Assembly (NCBI GenBank): GCA_046350355.1
Contig: JAXMAN010000002.1
Location: forward strand, 70,042-134,041
Source: Phycisphaerales bacterium
GTDB taxonomy: Bacteria; Planctomycetota; Phycisphaerae; Phycisphaerales; SM1A02
Direction of reading: 5' to 3'
DNA: 64,000 nucleotides
The translations under genes and the position numbers were made by a program. Of the stretch, positions 17,801 to 38,942 are shown piece by piece. The notes below the pieces were generated by a model, which saw only the letters and a list, made by a program, of their open reading frames with translations, was not told where the DNA came from and ran no database searches. The number at the start of each line of letters is the position of its first letter. The first letter of the stretch is position 1.

Positions 17801-18847
17801 GAGCTTGTAGCGGCCGTGCGCGTTCATCTGCGAGCCGTCGCCGGCGGCGCGCGCGGCCTCCAGCGGCGGGAGGAACTCGTAGGCGGGGCCGATGAGCCCG
17901 GCGCCGACGAGCAGCTCGACGGTGCGGCGGCGCGCCTCGGGGGTCGCGGTGCCGAAGGAGCGCGTGCCCTTGGCGAGCATCGCGAGCATCGGGCCGGTGC
18001 TGTACTTGGCGGATGCCGACTGCAGCATCTTGCCGAAGGCCTGCATCTGCCAGGGCTTGAGCTCGCCCGGCGAGGCGTCGGCGAGCGCGATCACTTCCTC
18101 GGGAAGCAGGCCCGCGTCGCCGCGGTTCATCGCCTGCAGGATCGCGGCGTAGACGGGCTCGGACTCGATGGCGGGACGCGAGGCGAGGAACTCCGAGAGC
18201 ACGCCCCATTCGCCGGCCATCGTCTGCAGGTGCAGCCAGCGCGCGAGGTCCTGCGGCTGCGCCGTCTCGGGGTTGGGGTTCGCGACCTGGCCGAAGCCCA
18301 GCTTGCTGCGCGCGGCGAGCACCGCGGCGGGCTTGCGCGCGAAGTCGAGCTCGCGCATCGCGTTGGCGATCTGCTGCCCGCGCTGGATCTGCGCGTTGCG
18401 CGCGGCGGTGATGCCCAGCGCGGCCTCGAGGTCGACGCCCAGGTCGGTGTAGTACGCGCGAAGCTGCTCCTGCTCCGCCTCGCTCGCGGCCGTGTAGAGC
18501 GCCTTCAGCTCCGCCAGCTCCGCCGCGGAAAATATGCCGGGCATGCCCGGCATATTTTCCGCGCCTTCGGGGGGTGCGCCGGGGGTGCCGGGGCGCACGA
18601 CGGCGCCGGCGGGCGCGGCTGTGCCCGGCATCGTCTGCGGCGCGGTCGCCGCGCCTGCGGGCTGCGCGGGCACCACCTGCACGGTTCCCGACTGCACCGG
18701 CACCGCCTGCGCGGGCGCGAGCGGCGTCGCCGGGACCGACTGCACCGTCACTTGCGCGGGCGCCGCGCCCGCGGGTGCGAGGACGAACGCCGCCATGGCG
18801 GCGCGGGACCAGATGCGCGAGTCGTGGATTCGCGTGCCGCGTGTCAT
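14897..18847 (-). CDS. BatD-like oxygen-tolerance protein, unusually large (about 1316 aa), with C-terminal TM anchor
   Basis: Last gene of the Bat operon. The C-terminal TM is WTQIRLVIAAALAALLGGAVLLARHW, followed by a charged tail. The first roughly 100 aa are A/P/Q/V low-complexity and include the 34-nt palindrome in-frame (ENMPGMPGIFSA), so the true start is uncertain (18847 or 18799). Confidence 0.65.
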   Translation of the reverse strand: MTRGTRIHDSRIWSRAAMAAFVLAPAGAAPAQVTVQSVPATPLAPAQAVPVQSGTVQVVPAQPAGAATAPQTMPGTAAPAGAVVRPGTPGAPPEGAENMPGMPGIFSAAELAELKALYTAASEAEQEQLRAYYTDLGVDLEAALGITAARNAQIQRGQQIANAMRELDFARKPAAVLAARSKLGFGQVANPNPETAQPQDLARWLHLQTMAGEWGVLSEFLASRPAIESEPVYAAILQAMNRGDAGLLPEEVIALADASPGELKPWQMQAFGKMLQSASAKYSTGPMLAMLAKGTRSFGTATPEARRRTVELLVGAGLIGPAYEFLPPLEAARAAGDGSQMNAHGRYKLDLAEKAGDSPEADALRLEAWQIFCDVALIDRETLAVRREALKMAIDLMSRVPRAQAGPWLTKVFANPSLGPAALEALALAATGVGEQRLETEQRAQALLGLKEAVDLLLAREDIDIASLRVPLRMVTAALVQEMEQAVSRRGQNRMVAREAQLLLRAIPNEKWLQALEPSLASRARKACIALATTADETDQALAMLDTAIDRSPADAASFADDFLQKWRIRLTPVQEYPPEMMQYFAFYRDAMPMAPLTRGRQRRNLERLGTLLATLREHGVEARALPGLVPAFMACHASTEVYDRADIERVFGPIGGMPPATAAMLAERMGSSLNGDWRNRAAQKATGTKRSDNEIAALVDKGYGVAIDLADAAIAREPGSWELASMKAALTFDRMQFRQQQPGADAEKTGAYRQAAFDAFAQAATAYIAALQAGKVRDDPSIHLRWFGAAMGTAELNFLRVDDLPKEGTLQDDQVDLLRKSLQTLARDDYDRHMAAFAAAVQGAIERADPEVKPRLVHHALRVIGDHPAGAGLRAMQELYRDLVKDEIKLRLTLDGPDHVGVGKPFGVLVSLRYTHSVDRETGGFSKYLQNGVFGRVGNNYRQINYRDQVQKALEDAFTRAFDVQAIGFFDPFMPPRGVVEAGQDGWLEKPMAYVVLSRKEPVTDRLPSVTLDMQFTDQTGPVSLALPSNTPLLASGDDAAPRPVTKLEVAQLVDVRGAEGLAQGKQTVTLEVRVKGEGVPPALQEILQGVDAPLAGYTLGADGIAAAPMVVMQAGDAAMPSRFGMMSPSAEPKDGYPEADSNGIFHLPIERTYTVTYTRAGGDIGSVFTLPVLRPGVDATLESRAYADLDIVPVKGSTVAVAGGGWTQIRLVIAAALAALLGGAVLLARHWTKRREAAPAPAWAPARLTPLGVVTSLRRLERERGAALEPARAQSLREEIVGLESRLFGPQAQEASEPELRAVVERWQTVAGAR
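18527..18560. repeat. 34-nt perfect palindrome GGAAAATATGCCGGGCATGCCCGGCATATTTTCC, copy A (extends to 40 nt with CGC/GCG flanks)
   Basis: Exact inverted repeat. AT-rich arms and a GC core in a 70% GC genome. It is read in-frame within the BatD-like ORF. Confidence 0.9.
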
Positions 18848-18863
18848 CGGTTGTTCCTGAGAT

Positions 18864-19736
18864 TCACCAGCCGTCGCCGATCTCGCCGTTCATGCCGGCT
18901 CCGTTTCTGGGCTGATCGCCCGGGCGCTTGCCCTTGCCCTTCTTCTTCTGCTTCCCCGGCAGGCCGCTGTTGCAGTTGCCGCCCGGGCAGTCCTTCGGGC
19001 GCGGACGCATCAGGAGCTGCTCGATCGAGCTCTGCTCCAGGTTCAGCACCAGCTCCCCGTTGCGCTCGAGATCGATCGCCGACTGCGGATCGCCCCCCGT
19101 CGCGCGCGCGCGCTCCGACAGGTAGCGGTAGTTCTGTCGCGCCAGACCGGAGAGCTCGCGCCACTCCGCGGTGGGCTTGCCCGCCATGCGCATCAGGCGC
19201 GCGCCGTAGTAGTAGGCCGTCGCCAGCTCGTTGCGCGCGGCCAGCACCAGCGGGCTCCCCTGGGTCTGCGGGGTCTCCGCGGTCTCCAGCAGGTCCTCCA
19301 GCTCCAGCGTGCCCGCCTCGATCTGCCCGGCGCGGACGCTCGCGCGCGCGTGCGCCAGCCGCAGCCGGTCGCGCAGCGCGGGATCGCCGTCGCCCACCAG
19401 CTCCTTCGCCGCCTGGATCGTCTCGGCGGTCGCCGCCCACGCGGTCTTCGCGGCGGAGGCGGTGCGCTCCTCCTCCTGCTCGGCGTCGCGCACGGCGGCG
19501 TTGAGCGCGGGATCGCTCGTGCCGGCCGCGGCCATGCGCGCGGCGATCGCGCGCAGGTGCGCCTGGTAGGCGGTCTCCTGCAGCGCGGCGGCAGAGTCCT
19601 GCTCGCGCTCGGCGCGCGTGACGATGCGCGCGGCCTTGTCCTCGTTCCAGAGCTGCTGCCCCGGCCCGAAGTGGTAGGTGACCAGCGCCACCGGCACGAG
19701 TGCCCAGACGGTCCATCCGAGGCGAGAGAGGATCAT
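18864..19736 (-). CDS. BatC-like TPR/helical repeat protein with N-terminal TM
   Basis: MILSRLGWTVWALVPVALVTYHF is a TM helix, followed by helical repeats and a C-terminal Lys/Gly-rich tail. It sits in the operon between BatB and BatD. Its ATG overlaps the BatB stop (ATGA). Confidence 0.65.
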   Translation of the reverse strand: MILSRLGWTVWALVPVALVTYHFGPGQQLWNEDKAARIVTRAEREQDSAAALQETAYQAHLRAIAARMAAAGTSDPALNAAVRDAEQEEERTASAAKTAWAATAETIQAAKELVGDGDPALRDRLRLAHARASVRAGQIEAGTLELEDLLETAETPQTQGSPLVLAARNELATAYYYGARLMRMAGKPTAEWRELSGLARQNYRYLSERARATGGDPQSAIDLERNGELVLNLEQSSIEQLLMRPRPKDCPGGNCNSGLPGKQKKKGKGKRPGDQPRNGAGMNGEIGDGW

Positions 19737-20773
19737 GCCGGAGTTCTCCCCGCGCCAAGCGCGGTCGAACGGGTTCCCTGGGTTTCCGCGCGCCCACCCG
19801 AGGTGCGCGGGCCCTGCAGGGCTGCAGCGTACGCGCGCGGCACGCCCAGGACCAAGAGCGCGGGGCCCAGAAGCCCCAGGATTCCGCATCCCAGGCCGAC
19901 CGCGACCAGCCCCGCCTCGCGCAGGCTGAGGGTCTCCGAGACCCGCGGCGAGACCATCGCCAGCGACTCCACCACCTCGCGCGGCAGGTGGCGCGTGTTG
20001 CCCTGGTGGTAGACGCCGCCGAGCGCGCTCGCCAGGCCGCGCAGCGCCCACTCGTCCTGGCGCGAGCTGTGCCCGGAGACGACCGTCGGCCGCGAGGGAT
20101 CGCCCACGCCGATGACGATCGCGTCCGCGATCGAGAGCGGCCGCGGCCCCGGATGCACGGGGCGGTTGAGGTCGCCGTCGGTGATGACCACGAGCGTCGT
20201 CGAGCGGCGTGCCCAGCCCTTGGCCATCGCGTAGGCGGCGTCGAGGCCCGCCTGCAGGTCCGTCTCGCCGGGCTTGAACGCGGTGTAGAGGGGCAGCCCG
20301 TCGAAGAAGTTCGCGAGCAGCTCCTTGTCCGTCGAGTCCTGCAGCATCGGGATCGCCCGCGTGTAGAAGGCGATCATCGAGACGCGCGTGTCCTTCATGT
20401 CCAGCCGGTCCAGGATGCCGCGCAGCAGCTTTCCCGCCCAGGACATGCGCGAGACCTTCTCCGCACCCGGGCCCGCGTCCGCCAGGTTCATGCTCGGCGA
20501 GACATCCAGCACCACCAGGAGCTGCCGCGAGGCGCGCGGATCCGGGCGCACCTCCGTCTCGACCGGATCGAACTGGTACAGCACGACCGCGCCCCAGGTG
20601 GCGAGCGCGAATGCGACGGTGCGCAGCACGGGCGCCGCGCGCGCCCAGCGCCGCGGCGCGCCCGTGGGGCCGAAGGCGAGCTTCGCGACGCGCGCGGTGC
20701 GGCGCGCGTGCAGCGCCTCGGCGCCGGCGACCAGCAGCAGCGCGGCGATCGCGGCCAGGGTGGCGGTCACCAC
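19733..20773 (-). CDS. BatB-like von Willebrand factor A domain membrane protein
   Basis: The N-terminal TM is MVTATLAAIAALLLVAG. The VWA MIDAS motif is LLVVLDVSPSM. Confidence 0.8.
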   Translation of the reverse strand: MVTATLAAIAALLLVAGAEALHARRTARVAKLAFGPTGAPRRWARAAPVLRTVAFALATWGAVVLYQFDPVETEVRPDPRASRQLLVVLDVSPSMNLADAGPGAEKVSRMSWAGKLLRGILDRLDMKDTRVSMIAFYTRAIPMLQDSTDKELLANFFDGLPLYTAFKPGETDLQAGLDAAYAMAKGWARRSTTLVVITDGDLNRPVHPGPRPLSIADAIVIGVGDPSRPTVVSGHSSRQDEWALRGLASALGGVYHQGNTRHLPREVVESLAMVSPRVSETLSLREAGLVAVGLGCGILGLLGPALLVLGVPRAYAAALQGPRTSGGRAETQGTRSTALGAGRTPA

Positions 20774-21666
20774 GGCGTGTACCTCAGCGCCAGCAGGCCG
20801 ATCGCGTGCGCGCCCAGCAGCGCCAGCAGCACGGTGGCGAAGGGGCGGAAATCGTCCATCGGCACCGTGCCCACCGGCGCGAAGCGCGCGGGCTTCATGC
20901 GGTCGATGTGCCGGAAGATCGCGCTCATGCTCGCGGCGTCCGTGGCCGCGAAGGCGTCGCCGCCCGTGGTCTGCGCGAGCTCGACGATCGGCGCGGGGAC
21001 GTCGCTCTCATCGATGTGGATGTGGTAGAGGACGATGCCCGCGTCCTTGAGCTCGTTGCCGATCTCCGTCTCCTCGCCGTTGCCCAGGTCGAAGCTCATG
21101 CCGTCGCTCACGAGCACGATGAGCTTGTCCCCCTGCGTCGCCTCGGCGAGCATGTTGCGCTTGCAGAACTGCACCGCCGCGCCGATGGCGGTGCCGCCCA
21201 TGTGCGAGGGCATGTAGTCGGGATTCGCGAAGGGCAGCGCGTTGCGGATCGCCTGCAGGTCCTTCGTCAGCGGCAGCCAGCGGATCTGCGCGACGCCGAA
21301 GAGCGTGAGCCCGAAGGCGTCCCCCTCGCGCGCGCGGGTGAAGTCCTCGACCGCCTTCGACGCGAGCTGGTAGTTGCGCCCGGACATGCTGCCGGAGACG
21401 TCGAAGCAGATCTGGATGTTGGTGAGCGAGCGCTCCTGCCGCGGCTGGCGCAGCGTCTGCGGATCGGCCAGGATCACGACGGCGCACGCCAGCAGCAGCA
21501 GCGGGATCGCGTCGAAGCAGCCCAGCAGCCGGCGCAGCCAGGGGCGCTCCGGATGCGCCGCATGGTCCGCAGGGCTCACGATGCCCGGGCCGCGCGCGAT
21601 CACCGTCCACATCAGCAGGACGGGCACCGCCAGCAGGACGAGCACCCAGGGATGCGCGAAGGTCAC
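20767..21666 (-). CDS. BatA-like VWA domain membrane protein (GTG start)
   Basis: VTFAHPWVLVLLAVPVLLMW is a TM helix. The MIDAS motif is ICFDVSGSMSG, and the body matches VWA (LIVLVSDG). The GTG start overlaps the upstream stop (GTGA). Confidence 0.8.
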   Translation of the reverse strand: MTFAHPWVLVLLAVPVLLMWTVIARGPGIVSPADHAAHPERPWLRRLLGCFDAIPLLLLACAVVILADPQTLRQPRQERSLTNIQICFDVSGSMSGRNYQLASKAVEDFTRAREGDAFGLTLFGVAQIRWLPLTKDLQAIRNALPFANPDYMPSHMGGTAIGAAVQFCKRNMLAEATQGDKLIVLVSDGMSFDLGNGEETEIGNELKDAGIVLYHIHIDESDVPAPIVELAQTTGGDAFAATDAASMSAIFRHIDRMKPARFAPVGTVPMDDFRPFATVLLALLGAHAIGLLALRYTPW

Positions 21667-22559
21667 GGGCGCGGCTCCTGCGTGGCGTCGGCGGTCGCGC
21701 CCGCCGTCTGCGCGCTCGCCTCGATCGCGGCGATCGCGGCGCTCGGGTCGCCGCCGCGCGGCGCGTGCAGCCAGCGCTCGACGGCGGCCACGGCGTCGGC
21801 GGTGCGCGGATCGGCGCGCAGCGCGGCGATCGCGCCGGCGAGGTCCGCGGGCGTCTCGGCGTGCCCGGGGCGCAGCGCCTGCAGCAGCAGCAGCTCCGCG
21901 CGCGAGCGCTCGGCCAGCGTGAGCTCGCGCTCGCGCGCCTGATGCACGAGCTCCAGCAGCAGCTCGCGCGGCGTCGGCGCGCGCGGCGCGGGGGCGGGCG
22001 GCGGCGCGGGCGCGCGGCGCATCGCGCGGCGCACCAGGATCACCGCGGGCACCGCCAGCCAGAGCGCGGCGACCGCGCCCAGCAGCAGGCCGTAGTGCGC
22101 CGCGAAGCCGAACTCGGGCGCCGCGTCGCCGAAGACATCCGTGCCGTGGCCGGGCGGAAGCTGCGTGAAGATCTCGACCGTCATCGGCGGCAGCGCCTCG
22201 GCGGGGCGGCCGTCGGCGCGCTCGACGAGCGGCGCGAGGTCGTAGCTGCCCGAGACGATGCCCAGGTAGTCGACGCGCGCGCGGTCGCCCGGCAGCGGCG
22301 TGATGCGCACGATGACGGGCGCGGCCACGTCGCCCATCGGCTTCGCGCGCAGGCGCACGCCGTTGGCCGCGGGCGGGTCGGGGATCTCGAAGCTGCCGAC
22401 CGCGCCGCGCGGCGCGCGCGAGACGGCGGCGGGGGGCGTGATCGCGCCGGTGGCGGGCGTCGCGGCAGGCGACGTCGTCGCGGGCGCCTGCGCCCAGGTG
22501 CGCGTCGCGCCCGCGCTCGCAAGCGCGACCACCGCGATCATCGTGCACGCGCGCCTCAT
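21663..22559 (-). CDS. Hypothetical signal-peptide/TM protein of the Bat operon
   Basis: Signal peptide MRRACTMIAVVALASAGATRTWAQ. An internal TM is YGLLLGAVAALWLAVPAVILV. It is flanked by ATGA and GTGA overlaps that couple it to the DUF58 and BatA genes. Confidence 0.6.
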   Translation of the reverse strand: MRRACTMIAVVALASAGATRTWAQAPATTSPAATPATGAITPPAAVSRAPRGAVGSFEIPDPPAANGVRLRAKPMGDVAAPVIVRITPLPGDRARVDYLGIVSGSYDLAPLVERADGRPAEALPPMTVEIFTQLPPGHGTDVFGDAAPEFGFAAHYGLLLGAVAALWLAVPAVILVRRAMRRAPAPPPAPAPRAPTPRELLLELVHQARERELTLAERSRAELLLLQALRPGHAETPADLAGAIAALRADPRTADAVAAVERWLHAPRGGDPSAAIAAIEASAQTAGATADATQEPRP

Positions 22560-23437
22560 CCGCGCCCCCGCAGCAGCCCGCCGCGCGTCGCCAGGAAGTG
22601 GCGCAATGCGGGCAGGAAGGGCTCGTCCGTCTCGATCTGCAGCGCGTCCGCGCCCGAGCGCAGCAGCTCCTCGCGCACGCGCGCCGGATCGGCCAGCCGC
22701 GAGCGTCCGCCCGCGACGAAGCTGCGTCCGGTCTCGGGCTCGCGCGCGCGCAGGAAGCCCGCGCGCAGCGGCGCCGTCTCCGCGGGATCCATCGTGTGGA
22801 TCACCATGCAGTCGTGCTTCTGCGAGGCGTGGCGGATCGCGCCGATCGCGCCCGGATCGTGCAGGTCGCTGATCACGACGATCACGCCCGAGCGCTGCGT
22901 GCGCGCCACGAGCTGCGCCAGCCGCTGCGAGAGCTGCGTCGACTCGCTGTAGTCGCCCGTGCGCAGCGGCTCGATCGCGCGCCAGAGGTCGCTGCGACGC
23001 AGGCTCGGAAGCATCGGCACGGTGCGCTCGCCCGCGCCGACGACCGCGACCGGGCTCATGCGCCGCTGCGCGACCAGCCCCAGCGCCGCCGCGATCCACA
23101 CCGCGACATCGTGCTTGCTGCGCGCGCCCGAGCGCACCGCCATCGACGCCGAGGTGTCGACGACCAGGTGCACCGTCACGCGCTTGAGCGCCTCGTACTC
23201 GCGCACGAAGGCGCGGCCGACGCGCGCGCTCAGGCGCCAGTTGATGAGGCGCACCGAATCGCCCGGCTCGTACGGCCGGCTGCTTGCGTACTCCAGCCCG
23301 CTTCCCAGCAGGCGCGAGGTGTCCGACCCGAAGGCCAGGTCGTCCGCGAGCCGCCGCACGACGATGTCGAAGTCCCCCCGCGCCAGCTGCTCCGGCGGCG
23401 GTAGGCCCAGGTCGAACTGCGTCGCGGTCGCGTCCAC
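22556..23437 (-). CDS. DUF58-family protein (MoxR-associated VWA-like)
   Basis: MDATATQFDL... The DUF58 motif is GLEYASSRPYEPGDSVRLINWRLSAR. A MIDAS-like motif is HLVVDTSASM. Confidence 0.85.
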   Translation of the reverse strand: MDATATQFDLGLPPPEQLARGDFDIVVRRLADDLAFGSDTSRLLGSGLEYASSRPYEPGDSVRLINWRLSARVGRAFVREYEALKRVTVHLVVDTSASMAVRSGARSKHDVAVWIAAALGLVAQRRMSPVAVVGAGERTVPMLPSLRRSDLWRAIEPLRTGDYSESTQLSQRLAQLVARTQRSGVIVVISDLHDPGAIGAIRHASQKHDCMVIHTMDPAETAPLRAGFLRAREPETGRSFVAGGRSRLADPARVREELLRSGADALQIETDEPFLPALRHFLATRGGLLRGRG

Positions 23438-23458
23438 GCGTGCTCCGTTTCGGATGCG

Positions 23459-24448
23459 CTACGCCATCGTCGCCAGGATGTCGCGCAGCACGGCGGCGCC
23501 GGAGCGCCCCTGCGCGAGCGCCTCGTACTTGAGGCGGATGCGGTGGAGGATGACGTCCTCGGCGAGCGCGAAGATGTCCTCGGGGATCACGTAGTCGCGG
23601 CCGTGGATGTAGGCGCGCGCGCGGGAGGCGTGCACCAGCGCGAGCGCGGCGCGCGGGCTGCAGCCCAGCTCGATCTCGGGATGGCGGCGCGTGAGGTTCA
23701 CGAGCTCGACGCAGTCGCGCACGAAGACGTCGCTCACGTGCACCGCCTGCACCGCGGACATCGCGGTGGTGAGGTCGCGCACATGGAGCTGGTGGTCGCT
23801 GGTGATCGCGTCGAAGGCGGACATCGGCACCGCGCCCTCGCCGTGGCGCTTCAGGCGAAGCTGCAGGCTGCGGCGCACGACCTCCGCCTCGTCCTGCGGG
23901 GTCGGATAGGTCAGGCGGTGGCGCAGCATGAAGCGGTCGAGCTGCGCCTCGGGAAGCTCGAAGGTGCCGGCCTGCTCGACGGGGTTCTGCGTCGCGATGA
24001 CCAGGAAGGGCGCGGGCAGGTCGTGCGTCGTGTCGCCGATGGAGACGCGCCGCTCCTGCATCGCCTCCAGCAGCGCCGACTGCACCTTCGGCGAGGCGCG
24101 GTTGATCTCGTCCGCCAGCAGCAGGTTCGTGAAGATCGGTCCCTTGTGGATGCGGAACTCGCCCGACTTCTGTTCCAGGATCTCGCTGCCCACGATGTCG
24201 CTGGGCAGCAGGTCGATGGTGAACTGCACGCGCGCGAAGTGCAGCTCGATCGCCTTCGCGACCGACTGCACCAGCAGCGTCTTGGCGATGCCGGGGACGC
24301 CCTCGAGCAGCAGGTGTCCGCCGGTCAGCAGCGCGATGAGCACGCGCTCGACGACGACCTCCTGCCCCACGACGGTGCGGGCGACCTGCGTGCGCACGTG
24401 GTCCACGAAGGGACAGCGGCCGGTGACGGTGGAAGTGGCGGTGGACAT
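23459..24448 (-). CDS. moxR: MoxR-family AAA+ ATPase
   Basis: MSTATSTVTGRCPF... Walker A is LLLEGVPGIAKT. Walker B / sensor is LLADEINRASPKVQSALLEAMQE. It is 329 aa. Confidence 0.9.
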   Translation of the reverse strand: MSTATSTVTGRCPFVDHVRTQVARTVVGQEVVVERVLIALLTGGHLLLEGVPGIAKTLLVQSVAKAIELHFARVQFTIDLLPSDIVGSEILEQKSGEFRIHKGPIFTNLLLADEINRASPKVQSALLEAMQERRVSIGDTTHDLPAPFLVIATQNPVEQAGTFELPEAQLDRFMLRHRLTYPTPQDEAEVVRRSLQLRLKRHGEGAVPMSAFDAITSDHQLHVRDLTTAMSAVQAVHVSDVFVRDCVELVNLTRRHPEIELGCSPRAALALVHASRARAYIHGRDYVIPEDIFALAEDVILHRIRLKYEALAQGRSGAAVLRDILATMA

Positions 24449-24467
24449 GTCGGTGTGTTCCTGCGGC

Positions 24468-25628
24468 TCAGGCGGCGGGCTCGGCGAGGAGCTGCTCCAC
24501 GATCGTGCGCACGCGCTCCATGCGCGCCCCGGCGATGCGCACCTTCCCCGAACGGTCGATGACGATCGTGACCGGCGCGAACTGCACGCCGTACGCGGTG
24601 GCGGTGACGCCGCGCGCGGGCGGCTTGGCGTCGGCGGGCTTGGTGTCCGCGGGCTTGGCATCCGCGGGCTTGGCGTCGCCCGCGGCCGGCGCGGCCGGCG
24701 TCGCCGCCGCGTCCTGCGCCACCGGCACCTCCAGCTTCGCGGCTGCAATCTGCTCGCCCATCGCCTTCCAGTCCGCCGAGGGCGCGCAGACGGCGGCGAC
24801 CACGACGCCCTGCGTCGCGAAGTCCTTGCGCAGGCGCGCGAGCTCCGCGAGCTGCGTCTGCGAGGCGCGGCTTCCCGGCGCCGTGAACTGCAGCACGACG
24901 ACCGATCCCTTCGTCGCCTCGGGCGTGACGGGCGTGCCGATCCACTGCTGCGCGCGCAGTTCGGGCGCGGGCTTGCCTTCGATCGCGCGCAGCGCGGTCG
25001 GGCGCTTGGCGCCGCCGGCATAGCACTCGGCGGGGAACTCGCCGACGGTCGCGGGGGCGGCGGCCGCGGTGGGCGCGCCCTCCTTCAGCAGCATCTCGGC
25101 GACCTCGGCGACGCGGTTGGGCAGCAGCCCCACCGCGCGCACGGTGCCGGTGCGGTCGATCGCGACGTAGGTCGGGAAGAACTGCAGGTTGTACGCCTTC
25201 GCGCTCGCGCCGCCCTTGTCCTTCGCGACGGGGTAGTTGATCTTCTTGTCCTTGACGACCTGCGGCGCCTTCTCCCAGCCGCTGTTGGTGTCGTGCATGC
25301 CGATGAAGACGAGGTCTCCGTCGGTGTGCGCGGACATCAGCTTCACGTTCTCGGGGACGGCGGCCATGCATGGGCCGCACCAGGTCGCCCAGAAGTCCAG
25401 GATGATGACCTTGCCGCGGTTGGCGGCGATGGTCTGCGAATCGCCGATCCACGACTCGGTGGAGATCTCGGGTGCGGGCTTGCCCTCGAGCTGCTTCAGC
25501 GTCGCGGGACGCTGCGCGCCCTCGAAGAACCAGTCGTCGGGAATCGAAGGTGGCGCGCCCAGGGCCCCCGGGGCGAGCATGGCGACAACAGTGAATGCGA
25601 TCGCCGCGGCAAGTGTCGTCCGTCGCAT
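24468..25628 (-). CDS. TlpA-like thiol-disulfide oxidoreductase with two thioredoxin-fold domains
   Basis: Signal peptide MRRTTLAAAIAFTVVAMLAPGALGA. Domain 1 carries WATWCGPC. Domain 2 is thioredoxin-like but lacks CxxC. Confidence 0.8.
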   Translation of the reverse strand: MRRTTLAAAIAFTVVAMLAPGALGAPPSIPDDWFFEGAQRPATLKQLEGKPAPEISTESWIGDSQTIAANRGKVIILDFWATWCGPCMAAVPENVKLMSAHTDGDLVFIGMHDTNSGWEKAPQVVKDKKINYPVAKDKGGASAKAYNLQFFPTYVAIDRTGTVRAVGLLPNRVAEVAEMLLKEGAPTAAAAPATVGEFPAECYAGGAKRPTALRAIEGKPAPELRAQQWIGTPVTPEATKGSVVVLQFTAPGSRASQTQLAELARLRKDFATQGVVVAAVCAPSADWKAMGEQIAAAKLEVPVAQDAAATPAAPAAGDAKPADAKPADTKPADAKPPARGVTATAYGVQFAPVTIVIDRSGKVRIAGARMERVRTIVEQLLAEPAA

Positions 25629-25743
25629 GGGCGCATTGAACCACGGCGGCGGCCCGTCACGCGCCGCGGGGCGGGGGCAATCCACCCGGAGCGCGGAATT
25701 TTCTTGGCGACCGCGCAAGGGCCCGGGTACGGTGGTGCCCATC

Positions 25744-26520: not shown

Positions 26521-26548
26521 CCGAAGCGACTTTCTCCTCTTTCGGGCG

Positions 26549-27661: not shown

Positions 27662-27673
27662 GAGGCTTCATCC

Positions 27674-30916: not shown

Positions 30917-33085
30917 ATGCTGCATCCATCGATCGTCCAGTCGTCGCTCGCTCCCGCCGCCCCGATGCTGCTGGCCGAGCCGGTGCTTCCGGCGATCGTG
31001 GTCACCATCGCCTGGATGCTGGGCGGGGGACTCGTCGCCCTCGTGGCGCTCTACTTCCTGATCACGCGCTGGGTGGTGAACGTCGGCTCCACCGAGATCG
31101 CCATCACCGAGCGGCGCTTCTCCGGACGCCGCCTGCCCGCGGGACGCGTCTTCGCCGCCAACGGCGAGGTCGGCATCCAGGCCGCGTACCTCGCGCCCGG
31201 ACTGCACATCGTCCCCTGGCCTTTCATCCGCGTCGTCGCGAAGGTGCCCTTCGTCACGATCGGACCCGACGAGCTCGGCGTCATCACCGCCACCGACGGC
31301 GAGCCGATGCCCTCCGGTCGCATCTACGCCGAGGACAAGGCGGGCGCCTCGCACGACAACTTCCAGAACCCGACCGCCTTCCTCAACGGCGGCGGCATCC
31401 GCGGCAAGCAGCTGCGCTTCCTGACCAACGGCACCTTCAAGATCCATCCGCAGCTCTTCCGCGTCGAGAAGATCAAGAAGACGGTCGTCCCGCAGGGCGC
31501 CATCGGCGTCGTCACCGCGGCCGACGGCGTGGCGCTCGAGCAGGGCCAGCTCCTGGGCAAGAGCGTCTCCGACCACGACTGCTTCCAGAAGGCCGAGATC
31601 TTCCTCACGCAGGGCGGGCAGAAGGGCCCGCAGATCGAGTTCCTGCGCCCCGGCACCTACAACATCTTCACCGACATGTTCCAGGTCGAGCTGCAGGTGG
31701 CGATCACCATCGGCGACGACCAGGTCGGCATGGTCGAGGCGCGCGACGGCCGCCCGATGCCGCGCGAGGACGTCGTCGCGCCGACGCCCGATGTCGGCCT
31801 GCACAACAGCTTCCAGGATGGCCAGGCCTTTCTGAACGCGGGTGGCTACCGCGGTCCGCAGGAGGCCGTGCTGCGCCCCGGCACCTACTACATCAACCCG
31901 TACCTCTTCTCCGTCGTGGGCGCGCCGCTCACGGTGATCCGCCAGGGCGAGGTGGGCGTGCTCATCTCCAACATCGGCAAGGATCCCGCCTCGCTGCCGC
32001 AGGATGCGATGGAGGCCGCCCCCGGCCCGCTCGAGCGCGGCGCGAAGGATCCCGACGAGACGCGCGTCGACGCCGGCGTGCGCACGCGCCACGTCGTGCC
32101 CGACGGCTTCCGCGGCATCCAGCGCAATGTGCTCGGGCCCGGCAAGTACAACATCAACCCGCGCGCCTTCACCGTCATCCCGATCCCGACGACCACGCGC
32201 TCGGTGGAGTGGGGCGGCGGCGGCAACGAGGGCAACTTCGATCCCTTCCAGGTCGTCTCGCACGACGGCTTCGAGATGCGCGTCGAGGTGCGCTGCCAGT
32301 ACCGCATCCTGCCCGAGAACGCCCCCTACGTGGTGCAGAAGCTCGGCTCGATCGCGGACCTCGAGGCGAACGTCATCCACCCGCAGATCGACGGCATCTT
32401 CCGCGCGCAGGTCTCCAAGTCGCCCGCGATCTCGTACCAGCAGAACCGCGCCGAGGAGCAGACCGCCGCCGAACGCGCGGTGCGCGAGGACCTCTCGCTC
32501 TACAAGGTCGAGGTGGTCTCGGTGATGATCACCAACATCCACCTGCCCGAGGCGCTGATGAAGACCACCCAGGAGAAGAACCTGGCGGAGCAGCGCAAGT
32601 CGATGTTCGACGCGCAGGAGCAGGCGGAGAAGCGCCGCATCGAGTTCCAGAAGACCAAGTCGCAGGCCGACCAGCAGGACGCGCTCATCAAGGCCGAGAT
32701 CGGCATCGCGATCGCCAAGCACGAGGCCTCGCAGGCGCAGGAGCGCGCGCACGGCACCGCGGCGCAGATCCGCATCCAGGCGGAGGCCGAGGCGAGCCGC
32801 AACAAGCAGATCGGCGACGCCGAGGCCGCGGTCATCGAGGCCAAGGGCTCCGCGCAGGCCGAGGCGTACCGCCGCCAGGTCGCGGCGCTCACCGCCAACG
32901 GCGTGACGATGGTCGAGGTGACCAAGTCGATCGCCGCGGCGGGGCTGAAGATCACCCCCGACGTGGTCGTCGCCGGCAGCGGCGGACGCGAGGGCGGCGG
33001 TCTGGTCGACCTGCTGCTGGCGAACATGCTGCGCGAGCAGCGCGCGGCGCCCGCGGTGGCGGGGCCGGCGGCGTCCGGGCAGTGA
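30917..33085 (+). CDS. Flotillin-like SPFH/Band-7 domain protein
   Basis: The N-terminal TM is MLHPS...VVTIAWMLGGGLVALVALYFLI. An SPFH body is followed by a C-terminal EA-rich coiled coil (QAEAEASRNKQIGDAEAAVIEAKGSAQAEAYRRQVAAL). Confidence 0.85.
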   Translation: MLHPSIVQSSLAPAAPMLLAEPVLPAIVVTIAWMLGGGLVALVALYFLITRWVVNVGSTEIAITERRFSGRRLPAGRVFAANGEVGIQAAYLAPGLHIVPWPFIRVVAKVPFVTIGPDELGVITATDGEPMPSGRIYAEDKAGASHDNFQNPTAFLNGGGIRGKQLRFLTNGTFKIHPQLFRVEKIKKTVVPQGAIGVVTAADGVALEQGQLLGKSVSDHDCFQKAEIFLTQGGQKGPQIEFLRPGTYNIFTDMFQVELQVAITIGDDQVGMVEARDGRPMPREDVVAPTPDVGLHNSFQDGQAFLNAGGYRGPQEAVLRPGTYYINPYLFSVVGAPLTVIRQGEVGVLISNIGKDPASLPQDAMEAAPGPLERGAKDPDETRVDAGVRTRHVVPDGFRGIQRNVLGPGKYNINPRAFTVIPIPTTTRSVEWGGGGNEGNFDPFQVVSHDGFEMRVEVRCQYRILPENAPYVVQKLGSIADLEANVIHPQIDGIFRAQVSKSPAISYQQNRAEEQTAAERAVREDLSLYKVEVVSVMITNIHLPEALMKTTQEKNLAEQRKSMFDAQEQAEKRRIEFQKTKSQADQQDALIKAEIGIAIAKHEASQAQERAHGTAAQIRIQAEAEASRNKQIGDAEAAVIEAKGSAQAEAYRRQVAALTANGVTMVEVTKSIAAAGLKITPDVVVAGSGGREGGGLVDLLLANMLREQRAAPAVAGPAASGQ

Positions 33086-33094
33086 CGGACGCGG

Positions 33095-33811
33095 CTACTC
33101 CTCGGTCTCGGCGGCGTAGCCCTCTTCGTGCGGCTGCACGACGACGAATCCGTCGCCGCGGAAGTGCATCTGCAGCGCCTCGCCGCCGCCGCGGCCCAGC
33201 AGCGTGCGGAAGCTCATGTCCGTCTTGAGCTCGGGCTCGAGGTTGCCGCTCCACAGAATCGTCGCGTTGGGGTCGGTGGAGACGGGGCGGTCCGGCGTGA
33301 CGCGCAGCGTGAGCGGGTCGTGGTGGCTGGTGACCGCGACGATGCCGTGGCCCTCGAAGCGCACGTTGAAGAGGCCGCCGGCGAGCATCGTCGCGATCCC
33401 CTTCATCATGCGCATGTCCCAGCGCACCGTCTCCTGGAAGGCGAGCACGTCGTTGCCGTTGACGACGATCGCATCGCCCGCGAGCTGCAGCAGGACGACC
33501 TTCTTGCCGCGGTCCGCGAGGTAGACGGTGCCGCGCCCCTCGGCCTTCGCGAGCGGCATCGACTCCCCGCCGATCGCGCGCTTGAGCATGCGGCCGATGC
33601 CGTGCTCGAGCATGCCCTCGCGCGTGAAGCGGACATCGCCGGTGTGCGCGATCATCGTGCCCAGGCGCATCCAGACGCGGCCGTCGAGGTTGAGCTCGAG
33701 GATGCGGTCGCTCTCGAGCTCGAAGACGCCGTGCCCGCGGTCGCGCTGCGTGGTGCGCGAGACGAACTCGGCGATGGTCTGCGTCGGCCGGGCGATGGGA
33801 GGGGTGGACAT
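33095..33811 (-). CDS. AIM24-family (DUF124) protein
   Basis: MSTPPIARP... An AIM24-like pattern (GDGVL...NGNDVLAF...GHGIVAV...GDGFVVVQP). 238 aa. Confidence 0.7.
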   Translation of the reverse strand: MSTPPIARPTQTIAEFVSRTTQRDRGHGVFELESDRILELNLDGRVWMRLGTMIAHTGDVRFTREGMLEHGIGRMLKRAIGGESMPLAKAEGRGTVYLADRGKKVVLLQLAGDAIVVNGNDVLAFQETVRWDMRMMKGIATMLAGGLFNVRFEGHGIVAVTSHHDPLTLRVTPDRPVSTDPNATILWSGNLEPELKTDMSFRTLLGRGGGEALQMHFRGDGFVVVQPHEEGYAAETEE

Positions 33812-33831
33812 GCCCTGAAAATACGCCCCCC

Positions 33832-33865
33832 GGATAATATGCCGGGCATGCCCGGCATATTTTCC
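33832..33865. repeat. 34-nt palindrome copy B (one mismatch: GGATAAT) with an extra degenerate left half-site (GAAAATACGCC) at 33817-33827
   Basis: It lies in the divergent intergenic region, about 20 nt upstream of the AIM24 ATG. Confidence 0.85.
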
Positions 33866-34090
33866 GCGCGACGGGGTCCGATTCTTCGAAGAAGCCGCCC
33901 GGGAGCGCGGGGCGCGCGCACGACCGCCGCCGCGCCGCGCGCGCTGCGGCATCCGCGCGTCTGGGGCGTGCGCCGCGCGAGTTCTCCGAAGACCCGGCAC
34001 GCGCGCGTGCGCACGCGCGCGCCGAGCGCATTTGTTCTGCGGGGAAGCATCGCCGCTTGCGATGCGCACCTGCGTTTGTAGGCTCGGTTC

Positions 34091-34426
34091 ATGCGATTCC
34101 GCATTCGCGGACGCGAGCGCGACAGCGATGAAGTCGTCGAGCTGGATGTGGAGGCGACGAACTCCCTCGAAGCGCTCGAGTCCATCCGATCCCAGGGAGT
34201 GGAGCCGTTTGGCATCATCGGCATCGCTCCCCACGAACCACCCCGCGCCGGGGGCCCAGGGGCGGCGCTCTGGGTCCTCGGTGGCGCGGCGCTGATCGCT
34301 GCGACCGCGCTGCTCGTGTGGACGCTCTTCCCGGCGCCGGCATCGGCGCCGGACCGCGCGCCGGACCACGCGCCCGACCACGCGGCGCAGGCCGACGCGC
34401 CACCGCCCTCCGCGGCAGGTGAGTGA
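34091..34426 (+). CDS. Hypothetical small protein with C-terminal TM
   Basis: MRFRIRGRERDSDEVVELDVEATNSLEALESIRSQG... then ALWVLGGAALIAATALLVWTLF. Weakly supported. Confidence 0.4.
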   Translation: MRFRIRGRERDSDEVVELDVEATNSLEALESIRSQGVEPFGIIGIAPHEPPRAGGPGAALWVLGGAALIAATALLVWTLFPAPASAPDRAPDHAPDHAAQADAPPPSAAGE

Positions 34427-34490
34427 CCGTGCGCGCGGGCGAGGTCTGGCCCGCCCAGGCCGCCCGCGCCGCCGCATCTACGATGCGCGC

Positions 34491-35012: not shown

Positions 35013-35133
35013 GCCACGCAGCCTGCAAATCACGGGTTTCCGCTGGTGCCGCGGGGGGCCGGAGGTACCCTTTGGCCAGTGGCGCGCGTGGGGCGCGTCC
35101 GTGCCGACAGCCCGTCCTCGTGAGGAGCCAACG

Positions 35134-37359
35134 ATGAGCATCGCCGCCTTCTCCGCCCGTGCCGCGATCGCGGCGACGGCGGCCCTCGGATGCGCCGCCT
35201 TTGCACAGGTCGACCCGGGGGACTGTGGCGCCTGCTGCGCCGTGCCGCCGCAGGTCTCGGGCTTCACCGCGCCCGCGCTTGTCAGCACCATGGGCGGCGT
35301 CGTCGGCTCGGACTTCGTGGTCCACGCCTTCGGCGTCGGCGGCTGCACCACGCAGCCGCCCGGTCCGTGGGTCAACCCGCCCGCGTTCCGCCATCCCGAC
35401 TGGACGCTCGCGAAGCTCGGCTCGGTCTTCGGCGTGACCGTCGACAGCCAGGGCAACGTCTATGTCGCGCACACTTCCGTCTACGACATCGACGCGCTCG
35501 GCACCGTCGGCGGCGGCGGGGCGGGCGCGATCTACAAGCTCGACAGCGCCACCGGCACGCCGAGCCTCTTCTGCACGCTCCCGAACTCCGCGCCCTGCTC
35601 GACGCCCGGCACCTTCTGCGCGCCCGGCATCGGCAACCTCACTTATTCCTGCGAGCACCACTGCATCTACGCGACCGACTTCGAGGACGGCCGCATCTAC
35701 CGCATCAGCATGACCGGCGCGCTGCTCGAGGCCTACAGCTTCGGCGACCAGGCGATCCAGAGCGCGGCGCCGATGCAGAACGACCCCATCGGCATCGCGC
35801 CCTGGGGCAAGCGCACCTGGGCGGTGGCGGTCGCGGGCGACCGGCTCTACTTCAGCGTCGTCCGCGCGGACATGAGCTACTTCCCGCAGATGCCCGGCGG
35901 CCCGCCGGGACCGCCGTATCCGCCGCCGGCCGCCGACCAGGAGATCTGGAGCATCCCGCTGACGCCCGTGACCGGCGCATTCGCGAGCGGCAACTCCACG
36001 CTCGAGATCCGCGTGCCCAAGTGCAACGTCGGCATCGTCAATCCCTTCAACACGCCGCTGCCGCCGGGCATCCTCTCGAACCCCGTCTCCGACATCGCCT
36101 TCGACGGCGACTGCTGCATGTACCTCGCCGAGCGCACGATGAACGACGCGACGACGACGGGCGCGCACTGCTCGCGGCTGCTCAAGTACTGCCGCGGCAC
36201 CGACGGGACGCCGTGGTCGCCCTCGAACGACCTCTTCGAGGTGGGGCAGACCACCTGCTCGAACATCTCGCTGGCCGCGCCCAACTCCGACGCGGGCGGC
36301 GTGGGCATCGATCCCAGCACCTGCAACCTGGTGTGGACGACCGCCGACTACATGGAGATGCCCTGGTGCAACGGCCCGGGCTGGTACTACGGCATCAACG
36401 GCCTGCCGCTCACCGGCGGCGTGAACGCCGCGGGCCTGCATATCGACATGAACGGCGACGTGAGCTACTTCGACAAGACGCGCATCGGCAGCGTCGAGGT
36501 CGCATGCCGCGTCGCGGATCCGTGCACGGCCAGCGCGGTGGCGACCTGCCATCTTGGCCCCGACGGGCTGCCCGACGGCACCTACGACCTCTCGATCACC
36601 GTGCACAACGGGCTCGACGGGCAGGCCGCGAACTTCATCCTGCTGCCGGATCTGGGCACCTACATCCCGCTGGTGCCGCCGCTGAATCCGGGCGAGTCGC
36701 GCAAGCTCACGACGACCGTCACGGGGCAGGGGCCGGGCACGCTCACGCTCGACATCGGCCTCTTCAACAGCTTCGGCGCCGATGGGCAGTGCTGCGGCAT
36801 CCTCGATGTCGAGGTGGAGCTGCCCGACTGCGACTGCATGCTCGTCGAGCACCTGACCGTCGACTGCACGGACGACCGCGATCCGACGACCTTCTGGTAC
36901 GACGTGCAGTTCACGGTGCGCAACACGAGCGCCTTCGTGGCCTCGCACTTCTTCATCATCCCGGTCTCCGCAGGCGTGACGACCGTGCCGCAGTACGTGG
37001 CGCTGCCGGCGCTGCTGCCGGGCCAGACCGCGCCGATCTCGTTCACCCTCAAGTTCCCCGGTCCGCCGCCGGTCGGACCCGACGGCCTCTGGCACACCTC
37101 GATCAGCTTCAGCATGCACAGCGCGAACCTGGCGATCTGCTGCAAGAAGGTCTGGGAGATCAGCGGTCCGCGCGAGTGCGCCGCGCCGCTGCTGGGCGAC
37201 CTCGACGGCGATGGCGATGTCGACGGCGCCGACCTCGGCCGCATGCTCGCGGCGTGGGGCGCCGCGGCGGCGCCCGGCGCGCCGGGCGACCTCAACGTCG
37301 ACGGCACGGTCGACGGCGTGGATCTGGGCGTGCTGCTGGGCGCGTGGGCGCCCCGCTGA
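35134..37359 (+). CDS. Large secreted protein (741 aa) with C-terminal dockerin-like repeats
   Basis: Signal peptide MSIAAFSARAAIAATAALGCAAFAQ. The body is Cys-rich with beta-propeller-like motifs (NVYVAH, RIYRIS). The C-terminus is [23 protein letters not shown] ... DLNVDGTVDGVDLGVLLGAWAPR. Confidence 0.8.
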   Translation: MSIAAFSARAAIAATAALGCAAFAQVDPGDCGACCAVPPQVSGFTAPALVSTMGGVVGSDFVVHAFGVGGCTTQPPGPWVNPPAFRHPDWTLAKLGSVFGVTVDSQGNVYVAHTSVYDIDALGTVGGGGAGAIYKLDSATGTPSLFCTLPNSAPCSTPGTFCAPGIGNLTYSCEHHCIYATDFEDGRIYRISMTGALLEAYSFGDQAIQSAAPMQNDPIGIAPWGKRTWAVAVAGDRLYFSVVRADMSYFPQMPGGPPGPPYPPPAADQEIWSIPLTPVTGAFASGNSTLEIRVPKCNVGIVNPFNTPLPPGILSNPVSDIAFDGDCCMYLAERTMNDATTTGAHCSRLLKYCRGTDGTPWSPSNDLFEVGQTTCSNISLAAPNSDAGGVGIDPSTCNLVWTTADYMEMPWCNGPGWYYGINGLPLTGGVNAAGLHIDMNGDVSYFDKTRIGSVEVACRVADPCTASAVATCHLGPDGLPDGTYDLSITVHNGLDGQAANFILLPDLGTYIPLVPPLNPGESRKLTTTVTGQGPGTLTLDIGLFNSFGADGQCCGILDVEVELPDCDCMLVEHLTVDCTDDRDPTTFWYDVQFTVRNTSAFVASHFFIIPVSAGVTTVPQYVALPALLPGQTAPISFTLKFPGPPPVGPDGLWHTSISFSMHSANLAICCKKVWEISGPRECAAPLLGDLDGDGDVDGADLGRMLAAWGAAAAPGAPGDLNVDGTVDGVDLGVLLGAWAPR

Positions 37360-37364
37360 CCTCC

Positions 37365-37398
37365 GGAAAATATGCCGGGCATGCCCGGCATATTTTCC
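37365..37398. repeat. 34-nt palindrome copy C (exact)
   Basis: It begins 6 nt after the stop of the 35134..37359 gene and ends 12 nt before the next ATG. Confidence 0.9.
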
Positions 37399-37409
37399 AC
37401 CCGATCCGG

Positions 37410-38327
37410 ATGACCGCAGAGCAGACGATCCAGCGTCCGATCCAGCCGCCATTCGCCAGCGCCGCCTGTCCGCGCTGCGGGCATCGGTGCGAGATCGATC
37501 CGGAACAGCCGCTCGCGCCGGTGCGGTGTCCGGATTGCGGGGGGGAGTTCGTTGGTGGGCGGGTGTGGGACGTCGCGCTCGCGGATCCGGCCGCGCGTCG
37601 GCGCTTCGCGTGGGCGCTGATCGTTGGTGGAGGGGCGTGCGTGCTTGGGATAGTCGCTCGAGAGGCGGGCCCGGTGCTCGTCGCGCTGGGTGTGCAGGTC
37701 GCCCGCGACGGACGCGGTTTTCAAAGCGCATGGATTGAACCGCTCCTGACGCTGATGGCGCATGTCGCGCAGTTCGTTTCCATCCCGGCGCAGTGGATGC
37801 TGCTTCGTGCTGGCCTGGCCGAGGCACGGCGCCCGCGCGCGATCTGGGCAGCGTGGGCGTGGCTGGTCGTGCAGTCGCTGTGCGTGTTGTTCAGCCTGCT
37901 TGTCCTTGCGGTGTGGATGAAGGATCGCGATCCGGGACAGTTCAGGCAGATGCAGGCGACGTATGAATCGATCAGCGGGTCGCTTGGAGGCGTGCCGGGG
38001 AACCTGCACCTTTCGATCGCGTTCGCCATCCCGGCGGGCGTGGCCATCATGCTCCTGCTCCTGGGCCTGCCTTCCCCCGGTTTGGTCGGACGATCGGTGA
38101 AGTTGGCATGCTTGATCATCGCCGCTGGCATCGTGCTGCCGTTCATGGTCCGCAGTGCGATGTCGATCCTGTCTGCGGTGGACTCAAACACGACCGTGCA
38201 GTTGGCCCAATCGGCCGCGTTCCGCGTGATCCACAGCGCAGCCACGCATTGGATCCCGTCTGCCACTGTCGCCATCGGCGGACTCATGCTCCTGCGGACG
38301 GGGATCCGCATGCGGGGCGCGCGATGA
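37410..38327 (+). CDS. Polytopic membrane protein with N-terminal C4 zinc ribbon
   Basis: MTAEQTIQRPIQPPFASAACPRCGHRCEIDPEQPLAPVRCPDCGG is followed by 5-6 TM helices. Its stop overlaps the next start (ATGA). Confidence 0.7.
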   Translation: MTAEQTIQRPIQPPFASAACPRCGHRCEIDPEQPLAPVRCPDCGGEFVGGRVWDVALADPAARRRFAWALIVGGGACVLGIVAREAGPVLVALGVQVARDGRGFQSAWIEPLLTLMAHVAQFVSIPAQWMLLRAGLAEARRPRAIWAAWAWLVVQSLCVLFSLLVLAVWMKDRDPGQFRQMQATYESISGSLGGVPGNLHLSIAFAIPAGVAIMLLLLGLPSPGLVGRSVKLACLIIAAGIVLPFMVRSAMSILSAVDSNTTVQLAQSAAFRVIHSAATHWIPSATVAIGGLMLLRTGIRMRGAR

Positions 38328-38911
38328 AGCCCCGCGCGCCGCGCCGCCTCCGCATCGCCGCGTGGATCGCGATCGCGGTCGCGCTCGGGGCGGCCACGCT
38401 GCAGGTCGCGAGCGTCCGCTGGTCGATGCGCTACGCCTTCGAAGCCGGCCCGCTCAGCGTCTCGCTTGACGCGGCCGATGGGCTCGCCGCGATCTGGGTC
38501 GCGACCAAGACGGGCGTCATGGGCGTCTACGACGTGGGCTGGCACGCCTCCCGCACTTCGCCGGCGCCGGACGAGGGGATCTTCGGTCGCGCGCTCGGCG
38601 GCTCCTGGCGATGGATCCTCGCCGAAGGCGGCAACGAGGTCATCCCGCCGCACGCGCACACGGTCTGGCGGCTGCCCGGCATCATCGAGTACGAGAGCGA
38701 TCCCGGCATGTGGGCGGATGGCGGCGTCGCGCGCACGCTCTCCTTCGTGGTGTGGCCGATCCCCGTGATCGCCGGCGCCTGCGCCTGGTGGCTTTTCGGC
38801 GCGGCGCGCCGCGCGCAGCGGCGCGCGACGGGTCGATGCGTCCGCTGCGGCTACGACCGGACCGGCGTCGCCGCGGGCGCGTTGTGCCCCGAATGCGGCA
38901 CCGCCGCCTGA
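38324..38911 (+). CDS. 2-TM membrane protein with C-terminal C4 zinc ribbon (family member)
   Basis: The N-terminal TM is MKPRAPRRLRIAAWIAIAVALGAA. The C-terminus is WWLFGAARRAQRRATGRCVRCGYDRTGVAAGALCPECGTAA. Confidence 0.7.
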   Translation: MKPRAPRRLRIAAWIAIAVALGAATLQVASVRWSMRYAFEAGPLSVSLDAADGLAAIWVATKTGVMGVYDVGWHASRTSPAPDEGIFGRALGGSWRWILAEGGNEVIPPHAHTVWRLPGIIEYESDPGMWADGGVARTLSFVVWPIPVIAGACAWWLFGAARRAQRRATGRCVRCGYDRTGVAAGALCPECGTAA

Positions 38912-38942
38912 AAATATGCCGGGCATGCCCGGCATGTTTTCC
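38909..38942. repeat. 34-nt palindrome copy D (two mismatches: TGAAAAT... and ...CATGTTTTCC)
   Basis: It overlaps the TGA stop of the 38324..38911 gene. The next gene's ATG is 31 nt downstream. Confidence 0.85.

Follow-up and report, generated by a model that had tools for sequence, protein, structure and literature searches.

Within the 64-kb window analysed here (64,000 nucleotides of contig JAXMAN010000002.1 from the Phycisphaerales bacterium assembly GCA_046350355.1, with a GC content of 67-75%), a 34-nt perfect palindrome with the consensus GGAAAATATGCCGGGCATGCCCGGCATATTTTCC is present in four copies (Table 1) and the same palindrome recurs on other contigs in unrelated flanks, forming a family that is real, dispersed and rare in public data. 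The genes around the four copies were called from third-position GC profiles, translations and Pfam. Copy 1 lies in frame within a 1316-aa gene (14897..18847, minus strand), the last gene of a MoxR-DUF58-VWA operon, and encodes the peptide ENMPGMPGIFS (aa 97-107) of its product. The GC content at third codon positions (GC3) is 0.93-0.97 on either side of copy 1, the coding signal runs on across both flanks, and NCBI annotates the whole open reading frame (ORF), copy 1 included (P0001; U0625_06685). Copy 2 is located in a divergent spacer, 20 nt upstream of the start (33811) of an AIM24-family gene (33095..33811, minus strand). Copy 3 begins 5 nt past the TGA (37357-37359) of gene 35134..37359 (plus strand) and lies 11 nt ahead of ATG 37410 of a gene for a 305-aa membrane protein. 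In copy 4 the substitution G1->T creates the TGA (38909-38911) that is the stop of gene 38324..38911 (plus strand), and the copy ends 30 nt before the likely true start of a DUF2652 gene (38973, MELRP). The initial annotation of this stretch had placed three copies immediately 3' of genes or in intergenic gaps; three copies are indeed non-coding, but only copies 3 and 4 follow stops, and the intragenic position of copy 1 had been missed.

Table 1. Copies of the palindrome and associated features in the 64-kb window
Feature	Positions	Strand	Description
Copy 1	18527-18560		0 mismatches to the consensus; perfect palindrome
Degenerate extra half-arm TGAAAATACGCC	33816-33827		read from the sequence, 4 nt left of copy 2
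Copy 2	33832-33865		1 mismatch, A4->T
Strain-variable 625-nt segment	33866-34490	+	abuts copy 2; contains a 111-aa ORF, 34091..34426
Copy 3	37365-37398		0 mismatches to the consensus; perfect palindrome
Two-gene unit	37399-38908	+	lies between copies 3 and 4; genes 37410..38327 and 38324..38911
Copy 4	38909-38942		2 mismatches, G1->T and A28->G

The four copies were re-found at the coordinates and with the mismatches originally reported, and none of 100 shuffles of the window contained a match to the 34-mer (four real copies versus zero expected). The symmetry of copy 1 reaches 40 nt without a mismatch (18524-18563), as had been noted before. The 9-nt arm GGAAAATAT was found solely within the four palindromes in the whole window, so that there are no solo half-sites in it, and the 18-nt core gave no additional good match there. 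Copy counts given here cover the 64-kb window plus matching or fetched metagenome contigs. It is correct, as the initial annotation stated, that all six frames of the palindrome are open and that the peptides encoded by it recur in spurious ORFs of the window, where all three of them were found. However, 25% of composition-matched random palindromes are likewise open in six frames; this openness alone therefore means little, and the idea that the stop-free frames reflect design was rejected for the same reason.

In order to compare the sites between strains, contigs of relatives were fetched via the proteins adjoining the palindromes, and all window copies were reproduced by independent assemblies. 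In contig L122, with 99.8% identity to 33072-34222, copy 2 takes its perfect form, indicating that A4->T is private to the window. Copy 4 is repeated in L124 with both mismatches, and its T1 is common to L124, L128 and L131. The Logan contigs L123 (100% identical) and L128 (88.6%) cover exactly 37371/2-38938/9 and terminate inside copies 3 and 4, and two identical contigs (L125 and L126) stop at the edge of copy 1. Such contig breaks at the palindromes correspond to assembly-graph behaviour at repeats, which rules out an artefact of one assembly. An explanation of the copies by assembly collapse or chimera, or else as a repeated coding motif MPGMPG, could invoke the 20-nt core ATGCCGGGCATGCCCGGCAT, which by itself is common as coding sequence for MPGMPG (at least 110 loci, L001-L110, in unrelated GC-rich genomes in a reference-genome scan). 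Yet AT-rich arms are lacking at every one of these loci, which makes the arms the defining part of the element; in the window only one copy of the four is coding, and the copies are repeated, private mismatches included, in assemblies of different samples by SPAdes, MEGAHIT, Logan and JGI. The assembly artefact of which the initial annotation had warned was thus looked for, and the arm-less core loci and the independent assemblies together refute this explanation, leaving it a negligible probability. As a separate observation, a Met-Pro-Gly repeat alone can yield a GC-rich perfect palindrome.

When a 26-nt pattern was compared with 241 million metagenome records, three contigs with about 70% GC were recovered, each of which contains the full palindrome between flanks unrelated to those of the other copies. 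In L111 the palindrome lies between the end of an FtsK-gamma gene and a deaminase gene (TGA 8 nt away), in L112 between the end of an ORF and a downstream gene, with a cupredoxin gene next (TGA 7 nt away), and in L113 between a P-II gene and a small gene that converge on it (TGA 6 nt away), at a locus that also carries an EamA neighbour; here, stops flank the palindrome on both sides. The earlier proposal of a dispersed repeat is borne out by these three additional loci and by the independent assemblies at the window sites. The palindrome was absent from the viral contigs, plasmids and phages scanned, and no copy was found in 44 kb of the relative GCA_044230125.1 (63-69% amino acid identity), where synteny is lost and the result says little. 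Rfam gave nothing at gathering score on the palindromes, and its sub-threshold matches were chance-level 3' ends of small RNAs.

With regard to neighbouring genes, the palindrome is mostly placed shortly past a stop codon. At five of seven sites, the TGA of the upstream gene is found 0-8 nt from the palindrome, whereas one site lies between divergent starts and one (copy 1) is in frame within a gene. The distance to the TGA is 5 nt at copy 3 and also in L115 and L130, and at copy 4 the stop is inside the palindrome. Palindrome-bearing spacers measure 50-80 nt, and five to six of seven intergenic sites are in spacers of up to 80 nt, although only about 15% of the intergenic bases of the window belong to spacers of up to 100 nt; if insertion into intergenic DNA were random, such short-spacer placement would, from a rough binomial estimate, have a p of a few in 10,000. 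Stops linked to the palindrome read TGACC in four of seven cases, compared to 5 of 30 other TGA stops of the window. This excess is marginal and the spacing varies, and 'CTGACC' was rejected as a part of the element. Also rejected was a signal for selenocysteine or read-through (UGA plus hairpin), as the genes are unrelated and the read-through tail is short and ends at the next TGA.

Start codons are located 11-36 nt from an edge of the palindrome at six of seven intergenic sites, an arrangement that could be expected of an operator or bidirectional promoter element for these genes. The centring of the palindrome in a 74-nt divergent spacer in L127 would agree with such an element, as would the TATTTT of each arm, which may be read as TANNNT. 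Nevertheless, in L113 there are two gene ends and no adjoining start, copy 1 is intragenic, and the neighbouring genes are functionally unrelated (no functional coherence was seen by Pfam, which counts against a regulon). In addition, a simple consensus scan detected no sigma-70-like promoter in 30-42 kb, and all 34 positions including the centre are conserved, unlike in operators, so that an operator or promoter is a very improbable explanation.

Folding of the 34-mer as RNA predicts a 15-bp stem with a CAUG loop (-25.2 kcal/mol, z = -6.6), confirming the strong hairpin anticipated by the initial annotation, and in its sequence context the palindrome hairpin dominates on both strands; as DNA, the 34-mer has a folding energy of -16.4 kcal/mol. 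The GC core alone (6-bp stem, GCCGGG/CCCGGC) reaches -11.2 kcal/mol; after it comes AUAUUUUCC, in which 5 of 8 positions are U. In a canonical intrinsic terminator the GC-rich hairpin leads directly into a U-rich tract of 7-9 nt, and a bidirectional one has in addition an upstream A-tract that serves the opposite strand. Other terminator-like hairpins seen after genes, both in the window and in GCA_044230125.1, each have a sequence of their own and have no T-runs. One of these, the GC-rich hairpin CAGCCCGCCCAGGCGCATGCCTGGGCGGGTTG (14803-14834), is situated between the convergent ends of 14131..14775 and 14897..18847 and, having no T-run, is typical of the unique-sequence post-gene hairpins in both genomes.

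An A-tract, a GC hairpin and a T-tract, placed 0-8 nt past stops at five of seven sites and in the case of L113 between a convergent pair with stops on both sides, would also be the anatomy of ordinary bidirectional intrinsic terminators of the host. According to this explanation, which we consider possible but improbable, the sequence would be shared through a host factor, as suggested for the TRIT terminators of mycobacteria, and the copies would be immobile apart from local duplication or gene conversion. The conservation of copies 3 and 4 against 11% flank divergence would fit, and with other terminator-like hairpins unique and free of T-runs, the hairpin with T-run would constitute a special class. 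On the other hand, copy 1 is coding and copy 2 lies between divergent starts, the identity at unrelated loci requires a copying process anyway, and genes that follow 11-30 nt downstream (copy 3, copy 4 and L111) would need read-through. Furthermore, the same simple consensus scan, used for terminators, flags none of the copies; they go unflagged because the T-run sits inside the maximal stem, and the U-tract also begins with AUA.

From the comparison of relatives it is evident that the conservation of copies 3 and 4 is much stronger than that of their flanks. Between L128 and the window, 175 of 1570 aligned positions differ (11.1%), whereas among the 57 palindrome positions visible in L128 only one differs, the window-private A28->G, where about six differences would be expected; the 27 visible nucleotides of copy 3 are unchanged in this 88.6% identical contig. 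At the copy 2 site, contig L127 (AIM24 at 94.7% identity) has the 36-nt version GGAAAAATATGCCGGGCATGCCCGGCACATTTTTCC, flanked by the AIM24 and YCII starts, which diverge from it; this version has 5 A and 5 T, being longer by an A and a T at symmetric positions, and shows one substitution. The half-arm listed in Table 1 is present in L127 as well and could be what is left of a second copy or else a part of the AIM24 leader. Contig L129 is 91.2% identical over 4.5 kb and has a copy 1 site of equal length, in which one arm (ADIAPGMPGIFS) is altered at 5 of 9 positions while the remaining 24 nt are identical. Codons ATA TTT, kept in L129, are out of character in a gene whose third positions are 96% GC, indicating that the half-site of L129 is palindrome-derived and that the insertion is older than the 9% split. 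Judged from these sequences, decay of the site in L129 would be the simpler reading; hairpin-templated perfection of copy 1 in the window lineage is a possible alternative. A clean empty site for copy 1 was not found among these relatives (L125 and L126 end at its edge and L129 is half-decayed). One consensus is kept across 5-11% flank divergence and every mismatch in every copy is a singleton around it, which argues for selection or gene conversion on at least part of the family.

Besides being repeated, the palindrome marks the breakpoints of strain-level differences, an aspect that had escaped the initial annotation: two rearrangements have breakpoints exactly at palindrome edges. In the first case, the independent MEGAHIT assemblies L115 and L130 are 98-99% identical to the window from 38910 rightwards, whereas to the left of their perfect palindrome an unrelated gene ends with ...DFDCAR-TGA-CCCCG and the two-gene unit is missing. 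The window arrangement at copy 4 is backed by L124, L128 and L131. In the second case, the window and L122 possess 625 extra nucleotides placed exactly between the palindrome and the YCII start, which are absent in L127, where the palindrome is found 18 nt from the YCII start and 20 nt from the AIM24 start at the centre of the divergent spacer. The 111-aa ORF in this segment has a weak coding signal and no Pfam match. Agreement between the window and L131, a SPAdes contig of low coverage (1.1), is limited to 38359-38965; the contig diverges on both sides (its positions 1-346 and 954-1057), on one side 23 nt beyond the right edge of copy 4 and on the other within the N-terminal part of the 195-aa gene, and represents either a further rearrangement or a chimera.

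These breakpoints, together with the strict sequence conservation, would be explained by the main rival to a repeat family, namely that a dimeric protein, notably a site-specific recombinase, recognises the palindrome as duplex DNA, and that palindromes bound exchangeable gene modules in a manner resembling dif modules or integron cassettes. The perfect two-fold symmetry of the 34 bp, readable as 13-bp arms plus an 8-bp centre, would suit such a site, as would the preservation of the entire primary sequence, loop included, across copies and lineages and the symmetric gain of one A/T pair in both arms of L127. Copies 3 and 4 bound a two-gene unit, the flank of L115 and L130 is near-identical on one side of the palindrome and unrelated on the other, and strains differ in having or lacking the segment next to copy 2. 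Still, no recombinase or integrase gene was detected among the roughly 45 window genes scanned, and full symmetry gives no directionality. Moreover, the 625-nt segment has a palindrome at one end only, and a simple excision between copies 3 and 4 would not yield the alternative haplotype, in which a different gene is the left neighbour. Hairpin fragility or homologous recombination between repeats would explain the breakpoints equally well, and a symmetric indel can come from hairpin-templated correction without selection. Sites of the dif type have an 11-6-11 layout, from which the palindrome differs in that its AT-rich parts are far from the centre. A protein-bound duplex site, which the initial annotation had named as an alternative, is unlikely on balance but possible, and slightly lower is the probability we attach to its more specific form, in which the palindromes would be fully symmetric 34-bp recombination sites that bound chromosomal gene modules in Phycisphaerales and are acted upon by a putative recombinase.

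Taken together, these data slightly favour, with somewhat better than even confidence, a lineage-restricted family of short interspersed palindromic repeats of REP-like (repetitive extragenic palindromic) character, carried by a group of Phycisphaerales genomes and best read as a new family among the known REP-type hairpin repeats, nothing unprecedented. Copies would have spread through copy-and-paste of the hairpin-forming unit by a trans-acting enzyme encoded outside the window. A transcript from either strand would form the 15-bp hairpin with its GC-rich top followed by AUAUUUUCC, and stop-proximal copies may act as bidirectional intrinsic terminators, as attenuators or as hairpins protecting 3' ends between tightly packed genes, whereas the copies in the coding region and the divergent spacer would be tolerated passengers that are decaying. 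A hairpin or cruciform might render the sites fragile or recombinogenic, which would account for the breakpoints. The bidirectional terminator module put forward by the initial annotation agrees with the anatomy and with five of seven sites, not with copies 1 and 2 nor with the unflagged scan; by analogy with known elements, the stop-proximal copies probably have a role in termination or at mRNA ends.

Several results weigh against the REP-like family and the functions attributed to it. Copy 2, between divergent starts, and copy 1, in a coding frame, cannot be terminators, and the terminator scan passed over every copy. Copies 1 and 2 are conserved no better than their flanks (5/34 and 4/34 differences compared to 9% and 5%, respectively); since they drift with their flanks, selection is supported for copies 3 and 4 only, and even there gene conversion could mimic it. 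In the flanks of all copies, inspection revealed no target-site duplication and no GTAG/CGTC tag, the adjoining bases being mostly C...G. Among the roughly 45 window genes no transposase, integrase or RAYT (REP-associated tyrosine transposase) was seen, and it was in these genes alone that association with a RAYT, an IS200/IS605-type Y1 transposase, was looked at. Finally, a peptide profile of frames 1 and 3 detected none sharing three 5-residue words among 5.8 billion proteins, the profile being limited to these two frames and the MPGMPGIFS frame being unable to reach the E-value limit according to simulation; this lack of a peptide match and the presence of only three contigs in 241 million records indicate that the family is rare.

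REPs are 20-40-bp palindromes located downstream of ORFs, which sometimes supply the stop and are sometimes intra-ORF (Di Nocera et al. 2013, PMC3733652). The palindrome resembles REPs of the GTAG/CGTC superfamilies as a hairpin-forming palindrome of 20-40 bp dispersed over seven unrelated loci, mainly downstream of ORFs in co-directional or convergent gene pairs, which can supply the stop codon and occasionally lies within an ORF; for REPs, too, roles in termination and mRNA stabilisation have been proposed. It differs by its perfect 15-17-bp stem compared to the imperfect 5-13-bp stems of REPs, by the lack of an unpaired GTAG/CGTC tag and of dimers or clusters, by its AT-rich arms, by the lack of a RAYT among the window genes, by an apparently low copy number and by its host, Phycisphaerales. 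Of the REP/MITE type that the initial annotation had proposed, the REP part can be maintained with respect to size, hairpin, post-ORF position, a stop-supplying copy and an intragenic copy, although not with respect to the tags, whereas a MITE (miniature inverted-repeat transposable element) has to be dismissed, as the arms abut without internal sequence and no direct repeats flank them.

The closest functional parallel, compared by description, would be the TRIT of Mycobacterium, a palindromic and hence bidirectional motif of conserved sequence that is present in 147 copies per genome close to stop codons and to which a factor has been suggested to bind (Gardner et al. 2011, PMC3152330). Both are conserved, bidirectional palindromic motifs of GC-rich genomes with many near-identical copies at stop codons; however, TRIT is restricted to Mycobacterium and located at about -8 relative to the stop, whereas the palindrome lies at 0 to +8 and is also found in coding and divergent-promoter contexts. 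Inverted pairs of the DNA uptake sequence (DUS) of Neisseria or the uptake signal sequence (USS) of Haemophilus act as terminators (Kingsford et al. 2007, as cited in PMC3152330). They share with the palindrome the pairing of one short sequence with its own inverted copy behind genes and the resulting terminator-like hairpins, but uptake sequences are 9-12-mers that occur about once per kb and mostly singly; in the 64 kb, the arm 9-mer is confined to the four palindromes. In Acinetobacter, dif modules are flanked by pdif (XerC/XerD) sites (PMC6449649). Here, too, short symmetric sites bound small gene modules that differ between close relatives; in contrast, the chromosomal, fully symmetric palindromes show by inspection no 11-6-11 layout, no Xer-type gene or other recombinase was detected in the window, and only two or three junctions were observed, so that the module-boundary aspect alone is seen. 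As a stop-free palindromic repeat in frame inside a gene, copy 1 is reminiscent of Rickettsia palindromic elements (RPEs). RPEs are about 100-150 bp long and frequently intragenic; the unit described here has 34-36 bp and only one of seven sites is intragenic. RPEs find mention in PMC3733652 and PMC10969869.

Short palindromic repeats have barely been described in Planctomycetota, and the family adds an untagged, fully symmetric type with terminator-like arms. If the role in termination is true, the palindrome would represent a sequence-defined class of terminators in a GC-rich lineage that is poor in U-tract terminators, in analogy to TRIT; if the sites serve site-specific exchange, the repeat would mark a new mode of chromosomal gene-module shuffling. 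There is also an effect on annotation, as the repeat breaks short-read assemblies and its ATGs draw false gene starts. The latter is concluded from the DUF2652 gene next to copy 4, whose homologues begin at a Met equivalent to 38973. The NCBI protein (P0235) begins with MFSATR at the ATG made by the substitution A28->G of copy 4 (38916-38973), and ENA calls for DUF2652 proteins begin at the second ATG of the palindrome.

Some further features of the window were noted. The operon ending with the gene that contains copy 1 (14897-25862) has the order MoxR (AAA_3)-DUF58-VWA-VWA and a terminal 1316-aa protein without Pfam domain, for which more than 100 full-length homologues are present across Phycisphaerae/Planctomycetota metagenomes, suggesting a conserved uncharacterised partner of Bat/MoxR systems. 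An exact 10-mer, CATCTACGAT, is found at 34475-34484, upstream of the YCII start, and at 38951-38960, right of copy 4, both within about 25 nt of similar sequence; its TACGAT fits a TANNNT -10 box, and the 10-mer might represent a promoter or leader motif common to the two sites or belong to a longer repeat unit. Just past a tRNA-Gly(GCC) gene (41078-41150) lies a T-run hairpin (41157-41179). To the right of this tRNA gene (41200-47500) the GC content falls to about 0.67, stretches 42058-43141 and 45864-47516 are without a confident gene, and the low-GC region may be an island adjoining the tRNA gene.

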